Origin: an uncultured archaeon
GTDB lineage: Archaea; Thermoproteota; Nitrososphaeria_A; Caldarchaeales; Wolframiiraptoraceae
Length of the DNA stretch: 64,000 nt
Assembly (NCBI GenBank): GCA_938083505.1
Contig: CALKCF010000004.1
Coordinates: 64,001 to 128,000, forward strand
Direction of reading: 5' to 3'
Shown: positions 1,850 to 50,283 of the stretch, one piece after another
Numbering within the stretch: position 1 is the stretch's first letter
Layout: the number at the start of each line of letters is the position of its first letter
Made by a program: the position numbers and the translations under genes
The notes under the pieces: model-generated
What the model was told of the DNA's origin: nothing
The model's input: the letters and a program-made list of their open reading frames with translations, nothing else
Databases searched by the model: none

Positions 1850-2100
1850 CCCCAAATTAACATGTATTTTACCTTTTTATATTTGCAGAAATTTATGATT
1901 TTCTGTTAAGAGACATTAAAAGCCATGTTTACTCTGCGCTAAATTAACTCTAAATATTGTGGACTCTTGTCCGTTCTAGGTGTCGTGAATGTAAAGTTGT
2001 ACGTAAGGATGAGTTTACCTTGCAGGTATTTTTAGGTCCTCTTCGAGTTTATAACAAGTTTCAATATAAAAACCGAACCAAGGGTGGGTTTTGCTAACGC

Positions 2101-2592
2101 CTAGGATTTTAGAACACGAGCCTCCATATAGTAGTCTCCGGTATAATGGAGTAGTGGGTTGAACTCTCTCCTTCTCACGTGCTCCTCTACTACCTTTCCT
2201 ACAAGAAGATAGTGGTCACCGAATAGTTCCATGTGTACAATAACGCATTCAAGCGTTATCGGTGACTCGGCGATGCCAGGGGGTCTAATCTTCTTGGAGG
2301 GAACCTTCGTTAGCATCACCATGCTGAACTTATCGACGTCCCTACCCGAGTAGCTACCGCAAACTTTAACCTGGTCGAGCATCTCTAAGGTCGCCACATT
2401 CGCCGTGAATTCGCCAACCTCCTTGAGGTTCGAGAAGGTCTGTCTCTCCGGCGCTATAGCGATTGCTACATACTTAGGGCTGAAGCTGACTGGCATCACG
2501 AAGCTAGCCGGCATGATGTTCTCCCTACCCCTGCCGTCAACACTCACCACCAGCAAAACTGGTCTTGGGAATATTTGCTGAGATATGCGCAT
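2101..2592 (-). CDS. Flavin reductase-like (DIM6/NTAB) family protein
   Basis: PRPVLLV, SFSP, CGSYSGRDVDKF and LEC...GDH motifs. Confidence 0.9.
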   Translation of the reverse strand: MRISQQIFPRPVLLVVSVDGRGRENIMPASFVMPVSFSPKYVAIAIAPERQTFSNLKEVGEFTANVATLEMLDQVKVCGSYSGRDVDKFSMVMLTKVPSKKIRPPGIAESPITLECVIVHMELFGDHYLLVGKVVEEHVRRREFNPLLHYTGDYYMEARVLKS

Positions 2593-41811: not shown

Positions 41812-42819
41812 CTAAATCACTTTGACTTTATCGAGAGGTCTGATTTTCATAACTTCTGTGTTGAACAGTGAGAGCGGGGGCTCACCTTTCAGGACCTTAA
41901 CGACATTCAACGCACCCGTCTCTGCCATCGCATACCTTGCTTCATACGAAGCATTACCTATGTGGGGCGTTAAGACCACGTTTGGAAGTGTCAGTAATGG
42001 ACTATCCATGGGTAGCGGTTCGACCTCGAAGACGTCAAGCCCTGCCCCAGCTATCCAGCCTTCTTTTAAAGCCTTTATCAATGCTTTCTCGTCCACAACA
42101 GGCCCTCTTGAAGTATTTATTAGGAATGCTGTCTTTTTCATCATCTTAAGCCTTTCTTCATTTATCAGATGGTATGTATCTTTGGATAGAAATACATGTA
42201 TGGAAACAAAATCTGACGTTTTTAGAAGCTCCTCAAGGTTAACAAACCTTATTCCGAGCTCCTCCTCAGCCTTCTGATTCCTTATAATGTCGTAGTAGAT
42301 TAGGTTCATGCCGAACGCCTTTGCTCTTACGGCCGTCGCATAACCTATCTTACCAAGTCCAATTATGCCCAATGTTTTATCCTTAAGTTCTGTTCCCAAC
42401 ATCATGAAGGGTGTCCATGCAATTTTCCACTTTCCCTCTCTTATGTATCTGTCACCTTCAACTATTCTCCTAGCAACTGCAAGCATAAGACCTATGGCCA
42501 CTTCAGATACGGGCTCAGATGCTGCTGGAGAATTTGTAACATATATTCCCTTAGACGTAGCGTAAGCTACGTCTATATGATCAACACCTGCTGTAATTGT
42601 GCCTATAATTCTGAGGTCTGGTGCAGCATCTATCACCTCTTTATCTACTTTAGCTGTTAGGTGACAGAGTATGGCTTGGACATCTTTTACACTTTTAACG
42701 AACTCATCATGCGGTATCGGCTCATCCTTTTCTCTGTAGATCACTTCGCACTCTTTTTTCAGAACTTCTATACCTGACTCCGGTATCCTGTTGGTTACGA
42801 ATACTTTAGGTTTCATCAT
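41812..42819 (-). CDS. gyaR: Glyoxylate reductase / D-2-hydroxyacid dehydrogenase
   Basis: GVDHID, GLGKIG, NTSRG, GAGLDVFE.EP and TPHIG. Confidence 0.9.
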   Translation of the reverse strand: MMKPKVFVTNRIPESGIEVLKKECEVIYREKDEPIPHDEFVKSVKDVQAILCHLTAKVDKEVIDAAPDLRIIGTITAGVDHIDVAYATSKGIYVTNSPAASEPVSEVAIGLMLAVARRIVEGDRYIREGKWKIAWTPFMMLGTELKDKTLGIIGLGKIGYATAVRAKAFGMNLIYYDIIRNQKAEEELGIRFVNLEELLKTSDFVSIHVFLSKDTYHLINEERLKMMKKTAFLINTSRGPVVDEKALIKALKEGWIAGAGLDVFEVEPLPMDSPLLTLPNVVLTPHIGNASYEARYAMAETGALNVVKVLKGEPPLSLFNTEVMKIRPLDKVKVI

Positions 42820-42853: not shown

Positions 42854-43120
42854 TCACCTTCGCTTCTGTTTTAAGATCTTTTCTACAGTTTTCGAAAGTT
42901 CTGGCCATTTTTTTCTGACTTCCGCCTCAATTATTTTAGCTATTTCGTCGCTTATGCTGTAGCGTGGTAGTAAGCTTTTCCTGTAGTTGAATATTGCCGC
43001 CGAGAGCGGAGAGTAGAAGGTAAGCCTTGGTTGTTTTACGGCTAGCTTTATTGCCTCTGTTAAGAATTTCTTGTTTATCTTCTCCTGTTTTTTGTTTGAA
43101 GGGGTTTGTTTTATTTTCAT
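42854..43120 (-). CDS. SegB-like ribbon-helix-helix DNA-binding protein (no adjacent segA)
   Basis: Gapless by-eye match of PRLTFYSPLSAAIFNYRKSLLPRYSISDEIAKIIEAEVRKKWPEL to the Sulfolobus SegB core as I recall it, with P, S, Y, P, S, E and aromatic-P-x-L conserved. Confidence 0.65.
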   Translation of the reverse strand: MKIKQTPSNKKQEKINKKFLTEAIKLAVKQPRLTFYSPLSAAIFNYRKSLLPRYSISDEIAKIIEAEVRKKWPELSKTVEKILKQKRR

Positions 43121-43155
43121 ACTTTCATCGACTTTTGAAAATTTATGAAAGTTAT

Positions 43156-43188
43156 AAGGTTTACCTTTTATGTTTTAAGGTAAACCTA
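43156..43188. promoter_or_regulatory. Pair 1 of AAGGT-NN-ACCT(T/A) palindromes, 21-bp spacing
   Basis: AAGGTTTACCTT 43156-67 and AAGGTAAACCTA 43177-88, overlapping the promoter region of the SegB-like gene. Confidence 0.75.
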
Positions 43189-43441
43189 ACAATTCGATAA
43201 CTATTGCAATTCGATCGTGAACGAATAAGGTGAAGCAGTTTAATTCAATATAAAATGAATTAATACTCTACCAAACACCTGAGAGGTTATAAAGCCCCCT
43301 CGAAAAACCCTATTTTTCGCGTTTTCGGCAGGATTTCTCATAAGAATCGGTTGGGGAATCGTGTATTTGTAAAAATAAGTCATTATTCAATGACTTAGCG
43401 TGGAAGAGGTTTTGTTCTTATTACTTGATGAATTTTCATCA

Positions 43442-43474
43442 AAGGTTTACCTAAAAAGGTAGAAGGTTTACCTT
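43442..43474. promoter_or_regulatory. Pair 2 of AAGGT-NN-ACCT(T/A) palindromes, 21-bp spacing
   Basis: AAGGTTTACCTA 43442-53 and AAGGTTTACCTT 43463-74. The second copy overlaps the purA stop codon. Confidence 0.75.
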
Positions 43475-44748
43475 ATAACAATTTCGCGCCGTTCAGCACC
43501 TATTGATACATACTTGATAGGACAAACCAAAAGCTTTTCCAGAAATTCAATGTAGTCCCTCAATTGCTTTGGAAGAGCATCGAAATTTCCCTTCAGCGCT
43601 TCGACCTTTTCCTTTTCCGAAAGTTCCCTCCACCCCTCCAGCTCGACATACACGGGTTTACACTTTTCCAGAACATGGAGCGAGCTGGGGAAGGTTTTAA
43701 CCTCTTGACCGTTAACCTCATAAGCCAAGCAAACCTTGACTGGGTCTATATTCGTAAGACAGTCTACTTTCGTCACAGCCACCGATGTAACACCGTTTAG
43801 CATTATTGAATACCTTACGGCTACTGCATCGAACCAGCCAACCCTTCTGGGCCTACCGGTTGTTGTTCCGTACTCTTTCCCTTTCTCTCTTACTATCGAA
43901 GCTACGGGCTCTTCCATCTCTGTCGGAAACGGACCTTTACCGACTCTTGTTGTGTATGCTTTAGTAACGCCTATGATCTCGTCAACCCTTTTTGGACCTA
44001 TGCCCACGCTATTACATGCAGCTCCTGCTGTTGTGTTTGAAGATGTAACGAAAGGATAGGTTCCGTGATCTATGTCCAATAGCGTTCCTTGGGCTCCTTC
44101 TAGTATGACAAAACCTCCCTTGTCTAGCGTCTCATTTACGAGGCGTGCCACGTCCCCAACATATTTTCCTAACTTTGAGGCAACCTCGTGGAGAAACTGG
44201 GTCACATGTTCAACGTCCAGCTCTACCTTTATATTGTAGACATCTGATAAGAGGGCTTTTGTCATGGTTATGCTTTTCTCAAGTCTGGACCTTATGGACT
44301 CTATCTCTACCAAATCAGAGAACCTTATGCCAACCCTTGCAGACTTATAGGTATAGGTTGGACCTATGCCCATTCTAGTCGTTCCAACACCCTTACCGGA
44401 CGACTCTTCAGCCTCATCCAGCATCTTGTGTATGTCCAACACTATATGCGCTTTGCCGTCTATTGTTAGCTTCGGTTGTATACCTTCTCTGTTCAATGAT
44501 TCCAGTTCCTTGAGGAGCTTTACAGGATCTATTACCATGCCCGAGGCAAGGCAGACGTGCTTACCCCTAAGTGCTGCAACAGGTAGATGATGAAATCTGT
44601 AAATCTTCCCATTAAGGACGACTGTATGGCCCGCGTTAGCACCGCCTTGGTATCTCACCGCCAAATCTGCGTTTTCTGATATAAAGTCCACGATCTTGCC
44701 TTTACCCTCATCGCCCCATTGGAGACCGACGATTACTACGGCTGGCAT
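43468..44748 (-). CDS. purA: Adenylosuccinate synthetase
   Basis: QWGDEGKG, GGANAGHT, EGAQG, GTYPFVTSS and TTGRPRR. Confidence 0.97.
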   Translation of the reverse strand: MPAVVIVGLQWGDEGKGKIVDFISENADLAVRYQGGANAGHTVVLNGKIYRFHHLPVAALRGKHVCLASGMVIDPVKLLKELESLNREGIQPKLTIDGKAHIVLDIHKMLDEAEESSGKGVGTTRMGIGPTYTYKSARVGIRFSDLVEIESIRSRLEKSITMTKALLSDVYNIKVELDVEHVTQFLHEVASKLGKYVGDVARLVNETLDKGGFVILEGAQGTLLDIDHGTYPFVTSSNTTAGAACNSVGIGPKRVDEIIGVTKAYTTRVGKGPFPTEMEEPVASIVREKGKEYGTTTGRPRRVGWFDAVAVRYSIMLNGVTSVAVTKVDCLTNIDPVKVCLAYEVNGQEVKTFPSSLHVLEKCKPVYVELEGWRELSEKEKVEALKGNFDALPKQLRDYIEFLEKLLVCPIKYVSIGAERREIVIR

Positions 44749-49215: not shown

Positions 49216-50283
49216 TTGCCAACAGAGAAAGAAATCATTCAAATGCTTAGGGGCGTTATCGACCCAGAACTCGGTGTTGACATAGTCTCCTTGGGAATGA
49301 TAAAAGACGTTAAAATAGAAAACAGCACAGTAAGAGTGACGCTGGAGCTGACGACGCCAGCTTGTCCGTTTCGTAACCAGCTAAAGGAGAAAGTCGAGAA
49401 TGTTTTAAAGAGATTGACTGAAGTCTCCGAGGTCAAAGTGGATGTAGTTGCCCGCGTCGCCCCTTCAAGGATTATTAAGGATAATCCTATTCCATATGTA
49501 AAGAATATAATCGCAATCGCTAGTGGCAAGGGTGGTGTCGGCAAATCTACAGTTGCCGTAAACGTTGGCTTGGCCTTAAGCGAGTCTGGCGCAAGCGTAG
49601 GCATACTCGACGCAGACATATATGGGCCCACAATACCTAAAATCCTTAATATTGAAATAAGCCCTACCAGTGCTGACAATAAAATATTGCCAGCAATAGC
49701 CTATAAAGGTATTAAGGTAATGTCTATAGGCTTCCTTCTACAAGATGAAGAGCCTGTGATATGGCGGGGACCGCTCGTGGCAAACACCATCAAACAGTTC
49801 TTGAGTGAGGTGGAGTGGGGCGAGCTCGACTATCTCATAGTGGACCTTCCGCCGGGTACTGGAGATGCCTCGCTAACGCTAGCGCAGAGCATCCCCCTAA
49901 CCGGAGTTGTCATAGTTAGCACACCCCAAGATGCCGCACTGAGGATAGCTATGAAGGCTCTGAATATGTTTAGAAGACTAAAAGTTGAAATAATAGGCAT
50001 GGTTGAAAATATGAGCTACTTCATTTGTCCTAACTGCGGTTATGTTTCCGAAATATTCAGCAGGGGTAATGTCAAGGCTGTTTGTGAGAGGTTGGGAATA
50101 AAGTTTCTGGGAGAGGTGCCGCTAAGTCCAGACATAAGGATTAATGGTGACCTCGGGAAGCCGGTCGTGATTGCGGCACCGAAATCCGGATCAGCGGAAG
50201 CGTTCAGAAGGATAGCTTATTCGATAGCTAGTAGTGTTTCGGTTATAGCCTATAAGAGGAAAGAGACGAGTATGGGGGCTTGA
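49216..50283 (+). CDS. Mrp/NBP35 (ApbC) Fe-S cluster carrier ATPase with DUF59 N-terminus
   Basis: DPELG, LTTPACP, SGKGGVGKST, DADIYGP, WRGP, DLPPGTGD and ENMS.F.CP.C. Confidence 0.95.
   Translation: MPTEKEIIQMLRGVIDPELGVDIVSLGMIKDVKIENSTVRVTLELTTPACPFRNQLKEKVENVLKRLTEVSEVKVDVVARVAPSRIIKDNPIPYVKNIIAIASGKGGVGKSTVAVNVGLALSESGASVGILDADIYGPTIPKILNIEISPTSADNKILPAIAYKGIKVMSIGFLLQDEEPVIWRGPLVANTIKQFLSEVEWGELDYLIVDLPPGTGDASLTLAQSIPLTGVVIVSTPQDAALRIAMKALNMFRRLKVEIIGMVENMSYFICPNCGYVSEIFSRGNVKAVCERLGIKFLGEVPLSPDIRINGDLGKPVVIAAPKSGSAEAFRRIAYSIASSVSVIAYKRKETSMGA

Follow-up and report, generated by a model that had tools for sequence, protein, structure and literature searches.

A SegB-family protein without SegA in Caldarchaeales, and the conserved palindrome arrays that accompany its gene

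Introduction

What would a SegB protein do without SegA? SegB, a small DNA-binding protein, is known only as one of the two partners of the SegA-SegB system for chromosome segregation in archaea, in which segA, encoding a ParA-type Walker ATPase, lies directly upstream of segB and overlaps it. The question is raised by a small gene lying between two metabolic genes in a 64-kb stretch of archaeal DNA (the window, to which coordinates refer unless a contig is named), with a series of palindromes in front of it. The synteny of segA and segB has been described as strict (PMC12284271), and SegB has been reported as confined to Sulfolobaceae and some Euryarchaeota (bioRxiv 10.1101/2025.04.15.649018); searches of the literature for SegB in Aigarchaeota, for an orphan SegB and for the core block described below returned nothing relevant. 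The nearest relatives of the protein are labelled Nitrososphaerota/'Aigarchaeota', the genus being Candidatus Terraquivivens.

Results and Discussion

The segB-like gene and its neighbours

The basic 88-aa ORF claimed by the first-pass annotation was found at 42854-43120 on the minus strand, where it encodes a short Lys-rich tail followed by a ribbon-helix-helix (RHH) domain of the SegB type, with the order helix, PRLTFYSP strand and three helices, a pI of 10.35, and 23 Lys and Arg versus eight Asp and Glu residues. Upstream of it is purA for adenylosuccinate synthetase (43468-44748, minus strand; Pfam PF00709, E 8.7e-159), and downstream a gene for a D-2-hydroxyacid dehydrogenase (41812-42819, minus strand; Pfam PF02826 and PF00389), the three being co-directional. 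The dehydrogenase gene has its own TATA-like box within the 34-nt gap that separates it from segB. The spacer upstream of segB has a length of 347 bp and a GC content of 32.6%, versus 44.8% in the window. The genes flanking segB vary from family to family; in Ca. Terraquivivens a purine block formed by purP, purP, guaB and purA has been inserted upstream, and from the gene orders compared, the ancestral neighbourhood appears to consist of an AdoMet decarboxylase gene, followed by the module with segB and then by an IMPase-like gene.

Membership of the SegB family

Searches of Pfam and NCBIfam with the 88-aa ORF gave no match, nor did any sequence in the family alignment match a Pfam model of SegB. 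A single-sequence search of solved structures ranked SegB first, weakly (E 0.047). An exhaustive search of 1.84 billion representatives recovered 139 relatives with a common C-terminal domain of about 70 aa, and a profile built from 68 relatives matched the solved SegB structures 7duv_A (E 5.5e-19) and 7dv2_A (E 8e-17). Pairwise BLASTP with SegB gave an alignment of 68 aa without gaps (E 3e-5). The AF2 model (pLDDT 84.9) has helices at residues 17-29, 38-50, 56-71 and 73-87, an order that agrees with the SegB fold published as alpha1-beta1-alpha2-alpha3-alpha4 (PMC8682754); the PRLTFYSP segment sits at the position of the SegB strand, the strand itself being unformed in the monomer model. Comparison with 48,161 chains by VIA-align placed two SegB entries at the top, with Z of 5.4 and 5.3 and an rmsd of 1.5-1.7 A over 55 residues, followed by other RHH proteins, and Foldseek also placed 7duv_A first, at a non-significant E of 0.66. 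The SegB homology and gapless core alignment that had been drawn by eye from the sequence are thus borne out by the family profile, the BLASTP alignment and the two best structural matches, and it is near-certain that the protein is a SegB-family member, orphaned from SegA and accompanied by conserved, cognate-looking arrays.

Some of the residues that contact DNA in Sulfolobus SegB have diverged. Arg32 of the 88-aa protein is aligned with Lys52, the base-reading residue of the Sulfolobus protein, for which Arg is reported in euryarchaeal SegBs, whereas Lys75 and Arg78, which contact DNA in Sulfolobus (PMC8682754), are replaced by Ser and Asp; their loss is consistent with a site of different sequence. 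The stretch K-Q-P-R-L-T-F-Y-S-P-L fits six of 11 positions of the published signature K/R-D/N-P-K/R-I-G/T-V/L-W-S-Y/P-P/E, which was derived from SegA-linked members only (bioRxiv 10.1101/2025.04.15.649018), and the remaining changes are conservative (I to L, W to Y).

Among the more distant relatives, about 43 proteins of the SegB family (within P0017-P0146) start with a ParB-like LG(K/R)GLDALI peptide, those named by source coming from Archaeoglobales, Methanobacterium and Methanobrevibacter, and members of the Sulfolobus type start with DF(L/I)LKK, so that there are two unrelated forms of SegA-activating tail. Tandem SegB domains are found in proteins of 160-330 aa (P0009, which has a Methanosaeta source name, and P0017, P0019, P0020, P0022, P0023 and P0027); each of them would amount to an RHH pseudo-dimer in a single chain.

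Distribution and phylogeny

The search of Caldarchaeales, an order of hot-spring archaea, with the family profile found exactly one copy in 58 of 61 genomes, spread over four families, and segB is present in all 42 genomes of good quality. Within a 301-genome sample of the phylum, SegB was detected only in Caldarchaeales (43/44) and in one other family (10/10), and was not found in the approximately 50 other families searched. This second family is Sulfolobaceae-like, has a SegB nearly identical to the crystallised one and served as a positive control, with segA directly upstream of segB in all four loci compared. In the domain tree, built from 74 columns with a quick search and used for this grouping only, the Caldarchaeales proteins and their metagenomic near-relatives form a single clade (43 rows, SH-aLRT 89) containing no member with the Sulfolobus-type (DFLLKK) or the ParB-like (LG(K/R)GLDALI) N-terminus. 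The Caldarchaeales SegB is a separate, third, SegA-less clade that has been kept throughout the order. A clade that is universal in another order, and SegA-less yet with its sites under strong selection, offers a natural case of separation of function for a role of SegB beyond SegA activation, which is an open question in archaeal chromosome biology.

Absence of SegA and candidate ATPases

SegB proteins bind and activate SegA through 10-12 conserved N-terminal residues. The N-terminus of the Caldarchaeales protein is short, Lys-rich and unconserved in the order, and neither the DF(L/I)LKK nor the LG(K/R)GLDALI motif was found in it. The flanks of segB, with purA and the dehydrogenase gene, hold no segA. 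Across this 98.5%-complete genome, Pfam families of the ParA type match only three proteins, namely an Mrp/NBP35 protein, a GPN-loop GTPase and a protein of 564 aa that has no KGGxGK[ST] Walker A motif. With a SegA of the Sulfolobus type as the query, only Mrp was matched in the genome (E 4e-6), as was also the case in all seven genomes of the genus, and in a six-frame scan Mrp was the sole KGGxGK[ST] protein, and so the only ATPase with a deviant Walker A motif. The first-pass annotation had remarked that the neighbours were not segA and had proposed a search of the genome for segA or ParA; its remark holds, and the search found neither segA nor ParA in this genome. A query with SegC also found nothing.

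The Mrp/NBP35 protein (49216-50283, plus strand) matches PF10609 (E 3e-99) and PF01883 (DUF59) and has a CPNC motif, features that are typical of Fe-S cluster carriers. Its gene is 6 kb from segB here, across the inserted speH-purP-purP-guaB-purA block, and adjoins segB, in divergent orientation, in two sister genera, both of family f1 like this genus. This adjacency is taken as synteny rather than partnership, and Mrp is unlikely as a hidden partner of SegB, given its DUF59 domain and CPNC motif and its adjacency in family f1 only. Some other genera have ParA/MinD-like genes, none of them beside segB, and no ATPase gene is a conserved neighbour of segB across the order. True ParA proteins in genus g6 of family f2 and genus g10 of family f3 were considered as partners and set aside, as their genes are not near segB. 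In genus g6 (L039, G047:C9 603-2004) the ParA-type ATPase (AAA_31, E 1e-49) precedes an ORF of 155 aa that matches nothing in Pfam; unlinked to segB, the two may be a separate partition pair or part of a mobile element.

Heptad arrays around segB

The palindrome AAGGTNNACCT occurs at 43156, 43177, 43442 and 43463, with no further occurrence in the window; counted on both strands it gives six matches versus 0.67 expected, a number reached by none of 100 shuffles. The first-pass annotation had listed four AAGGT-NN-ACCT sites at these positions, in two pairs of 21-bp spacing, one pair lying on the segB promoter and the other on the purA stop codon, and these positions and spacings proved accurate; the site at 43463-43474 overlaps the stop codon of purA (43468-43470). 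The clusters, at 43151-43187 and 43443-43479, form inverted arms of 37 nt each that are 84% complementary and separated by 255 nt, and each of them is made of about five in-phase heptads of the pattern [AAGGTAA][ACCTTnn], the 21-bp spacing of the sites being equal to three heptads of 7 bp. On the minus strand, the proximal array (43151-43188, unstranded), holding the sites 43156 and 43177, reads TAGGTTT, ACCTTAA, AACATAA, AAGGTAA and ACCTTAT, and the distal array (43440-43479, unstranded), an inverted copy of the proximal one, reads AAGGTAA, ACCTTCT, ACCTTTT, TAGGTAA and ACCTTTG. A regular phase between the clusters had also been proposed, with both pairs on the same face of the helix; this is not conserved, the distance between clusters ranging from 299 to 310 bp within the genus.

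Conservation of the arrays extends well beyond the genus. Upstream of 30 orthologues, AAGGTNNACCTT (with up to two mismatches) is located in two zones, from -18 to -70 and from -310 to -420 relative to the start codon; the proximal zone is conserved in orthologues of four families, and the distal site is present in families f1, f2 and f4. Within the genus, the arrays are invariant (for the distal array, in its non-coding part) and the surrounding spacer is heavily diverged. The 47 Caldarchaeales genomes with a located segB have 61 exact AAGGTWWACCTT sites in total, of which 34 are no more than 1 kb from segB, and 24 of these genomes have one or more sites at this distance; the other 27 exact sites lie away from segB, and of the three exact sites in this genome two are at segB. 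Half-sites up to 42 bp apart upstream of orthologues are separated by multiples of 7 bp in 218 of 389 pairs versus 138 of 785 in the control, which consisted of other DNA of the same loci. The arrays, the core block and segB also stay linked through an inversion (family f2), a permutation (family f3) and changes of neighbours, a pattern which indicates that the sites are under strong selection and tied to segB.

Across the whole genome the motif is at chance under an order-3 Markov model, with three exact copies versus 1.5 expected, and 22 versus 28 with one mismatch. The first-pass annotation had counted a background frequency genome-wide, together with a lack of conservation beside orthologues, against its own reading; the former was observed, while the latter was not, the motif being conserved upstream of orthologues in four families. 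Several near-sites were examined and dismissed: a fifth one, at 43017 within the segB-like ORF, arises from the codons for P-R-L-T-F, with wobble positions that vary among orthologues; another (C6:35359) falls within a CdrS-like RHH ORF upstream of ftsZ; and the remaining near-sites are single and mostly intragenic.

These observations bear on which protein reads the sites. The palindromes could be read by a different protein, or be lineage-specific promoter elements whose link to segB is merely positional, as would fit the departure of the DNA-contact residues from those of Sulfolobus SegB and the fusion of one site to a TATA-like box. However, with about one exact site per genome away from segB they are not a general promoter element, copies are present where no gene starts, the sites keep with segB through rearrangements, and palindromes with 7-bp half-sites at the start codon mirror S1 and S2 of Sulfolobus and the heptads of segS in S. 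acidocaldarius. Such a positional link is judged to be very improbable on the sequence evidence, and binding of the arrays by the SegB protein itself is considered likely.

Promoter and autoregulation

The promoter-proximal palindrome is fused at its 3' end to a TATA-like TTATAA (43152-43157, minus strand; ACCTTATAAC), for which a promoter role is inferred. The combination of palindrome and TATA-like box (AAGGTAAACCTTATAACTTTCA) is invariant in the seven species of the genus, with the centre of the box 27-35 nt before the ATG in five of them and at 36.5 nt and about 48 nt in the other two; the proximal array thus abuts a putative promoter, in line with the earlier placement of one site pair over the promoter of segB. 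In families f3 and f4 and in genus g5 the array extends to the ATG, and in Sulfolobus the site S1 of segA (...TAGTCTAGAC) is directly before the ATG. Because the palindrome is fused to the TATA-like box, a bound protein would cover the BRE/TATA region, which makes autorepression the best-supported step of the mechanism. From this arrangement, SegB probably represses its own promoter.

A simple alternative reading is that SegB is an ordinary autoregulated RHH transcription factor with no role in chromosome organisation, repressing itself and perhaps a flanking gene; the candidate targets would be AdoMet decarboxylase or Mrp at the distal array and the dehydrogenase or IMPase genes downstream. 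In favour of it, the core promoter is where the proximal array sits, the rest of the genome shows no enrichment of the motif, the distal array is upstream of a divergent gene in family f2 and in genera g3 and g5 of family f1, and RHH proteins are frequent among archaeal regulators (PMC12284271). Against this, the module of two arrays and core remains with segB while the flanking genes change; in Ca. Terraquivivens and in family f4 the distal array falls on the 3' end of a gene that runs in the same direction as segB, a position that offers nothing to regulate; clustered sites at its own gene only leave the protein with no evident regulon; and the only members of the family that have been studied are segregation or organisation proteins. 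An exclusively regulatory role is therefore regarded as rather unlikely.

The interior of the cassette

Between the two arms is a 20-nt core block, CACGATTCCCCAACCGATTC (43344-43363, minus strand), which is invariant in the genus and of which no copy or complement was found elsewhere in the genome at up to four mismatches. The core (CGATTCCCCAACCGATTCG) keeps a fixed position in families f1 and f4, at -218 to -266 relative to the ATG, and is inverted in family f2; family f3 has it downstream of segB, at about 100 bp, with some 400 bp of AT-rich DNA between the core and the 'distal' sites. A palindrome, TTAATTCA-N8-TGAATTAA, which may also be parsed as 9+6+9 (TTAATTCAA-N6-TTGAATTAA), is present at 43240-43263 (unstranded), with arms that are conserved and a spacer that is hypervariable in the genus, and more TTAATTC/GAATTA boxes occur near it. 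Other lineages have a different palindrome in the same place, TAATCC-N10-GGATTA in genus g5 and TTCGA-N5-TCGAA in families f3 and f4. The core and these lineage-specific palindromes travel with segB (window 43190-43440; L057/L058 6300-6950; L054-L056), and no known element fits them.

A hairpin, AAGTCATT-GAAT-AATGACTT, followed by the T-tract TTATTTTT (43369-43396, minus strand), with the T-tract conserved in the genus, is the probable end or terminator of the purA transcript, as judged by its form. A structured ncRNA in the spacer found no support in Rfam (E up to 10), in a tRNA scan or in RNAalifold predictions covering the two strands in seven species, with no family and no covariation detected and a consensus of about -10 kcal/mol over 260 nt; a small ORF in the spacer was rejected for its lack of a start codon and its indels that are not multiples of three.

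The inverted arms raise the prospect that the 330-bp segment itself is the primary unit, for example an unconventional origin, a Xer/dif-like site or an invertible segment, with SegB as an accessory. This would suit the 37-nt arms, the conserved core that is unique in the genome, the 9+6+9 palindrome with a hypervariable spacer, which is the form of a dif site (PMC8371274), the interior of family f2 being inverted relative to f1 and f4, and the AT-rich stretch of about 400 bp in family f3. Archaeal origins have ORB or mini-ORB repeats on either side of an AT-rich region and usually adjoin orc1/cdc6. Here, however, contigs C2 and C3 hold the Orc1/Cdc6 genes, which in a complete relative are about 140 kb away; classical ORB-like TCCATAAGAAAT..GGGG boxes lie upstream of orc1 on C3 and none were found in the segB spacer; and GC skew is uninformative. 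A replication origin is not supported on these grounds, nor is a dif site, the likeness being one of form only and genus g5 having two or three copies of the palindrome with a 10-nt spacer, unlike dif. As for an invertible segment, a single orientation is seen in the contigs of the one sequencing run that contain the stretch. A segment with SegB as a mere accessory is accordingly held to be highly unlikely. Elsewhere in this genome, inverted ORB-like boxes (CTCCATAAGAAAT..GGGG) are present upstream of an Orc1/Cdc6 gene, within about 640 bp of AT-rich intergenic DNA (G000:C3:163510-164150), which from these features is likely a replication origin.

Proposed function of the SegB locus

Here it is proposed, with a probability of roughly 0.6, that a SegA-less clade of SegB binds the heptads, represses its own gene and bridges the two arrays into one complex per chromosome. 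Dimers of SegB would bind the AAGGTWW/ACCTTnn heptads in their 7-bp phase; the proximal array, placed over BRE/TATA and elsewhere also over the transcription start and the ATG, would give repression of SegB's own short-leader or leaderless promoter; the distal array would be bridged to the proximal one by contacts between dimers, as for Sulfolobus SegB in vitro; and this bridging would wrap or loop the conserved core into a single high-affinity nucleoprotein complex per chromosome. Sulfolobus SegB has been reported to compact in vitro a 289-bp fragment with three sites and to loop sites 1 kb apart (PMC12284271), and by analogy the bridging of the two arrays is plausible.

Since the distal array and the core keep with segB through rearrangements, the SegB locus is read, from its arrangement, as a SegA-independent nucleoprotein locus, and the lone clustered sites at its own gene, together with a cis cassette conserved across the order, argue for more than simple gene control. 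As counterpoints, the chance-level motif across the genome fits a simple self-operator as well as it fits a single centromere, and the conserved core and the second type of palindrome may belong to another factor. Autoregulation is what the sequence supports directly, while a role as centromere or organiser is solely inferred. A further step is tentative and, on balance, doubtful, namely that the SegA-independent function proper to SegB would be to build a looped or wrapped nucleoprotein body on the cis cassette, once per chromosome, and that in Caldarchaeales this would serve as a ParA-less chromosomal centromere or organising centre; such a centre might connect to the membrane or to a different cytoskeletal system, an actin-family protein and FtsZ being encoded in the genome, and the SegA-linked arrangement of Sulfolobales could then have been added later or be one variant. 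The 12-bp palindrome, set in heptad arrays, is a well-defined DNA target that can be tested, and the conserved cis cassette, at about 330 bp, is compact enough for in vitro work.

Comparison with known systems

The closest system is SegAB of Saccharolobus solfataricus and Sulfolobus acidocaldarius (PDB 7DUV, 7DV2), with which the Caldarchaeales locus shares a C-terminal RHH domain, which is homologous and has its helices in the same order, and palindromic or heptad sites with a 7-bp half-site spacing, set against the start codon of their own transcription unit and with a second cluster upstream. The compaction and looping of DNA are published for Sulfolobus SegB. Unlike in SegAB, there is no segA adjacent to segB in Caldarchaeales, nor one anywhere in this genome, and the conserved SegA-activating N-terminal peptide is lacking; the site is AAGGTWWACCTT instead of TCTAGA-S-TCTAGA, and the two inverted arrays enclose a conserved core element. 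In S. solfataricus 39 ChIP peaks have been described for SegB, whereas here there is no scatter of strong sites, weaker ones being possible. The Caldarchaeales clade is also separate and belongs to a different class of Thermoproteota.

Plasmid centromere-binding RHH proteins (omega of pSM19035, ParG of TP228 and ParR/parC of R1) are likewise small RHH dimers with flexible basic tails that have phased arrays of short repeats over their own promoter, the centromere being the operator, and parC of R1 also has two repeat blocks around a central region. These systems always have a motor of the ParA or ParM type next door, whereas none was found at segB, and the segB locus is chromosomal and order-wide rather than on a mobile element; omega matches the 88-aa protein with a Z of 3.4, a sequence relationship being undetectable beyond the fold. 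On the subject of other filament-forming systems, the genome encodes an actin-family gene 61 kb from segB (G000:C4:45143-46117; Pfam Actin, E 7e-15; 428-aa frame), with a product that is probably crenactin-like; neither this gene nor ftsZ is linked to segB.

The regulators aCcr1 of Sulfolobales and CdrS of Haloarchaea are also small RHH proteins on short promoter palindromes, but their families are different and their targets are many or other promoters, and this genome has a separate CdrS-like gene. The latter, a CdrS-like RHH ORF (MMVKVVTVHLPEVYLEVIDELV...; G000:C6:35077-35427, L067 about 2040-2190, minus strand), is directly upstream of the sole FtsZ/tubulin gene, and the cdrS-ftsZ arrangement, known from Euryarchaeota, is thus present here in an aigarchaeon.
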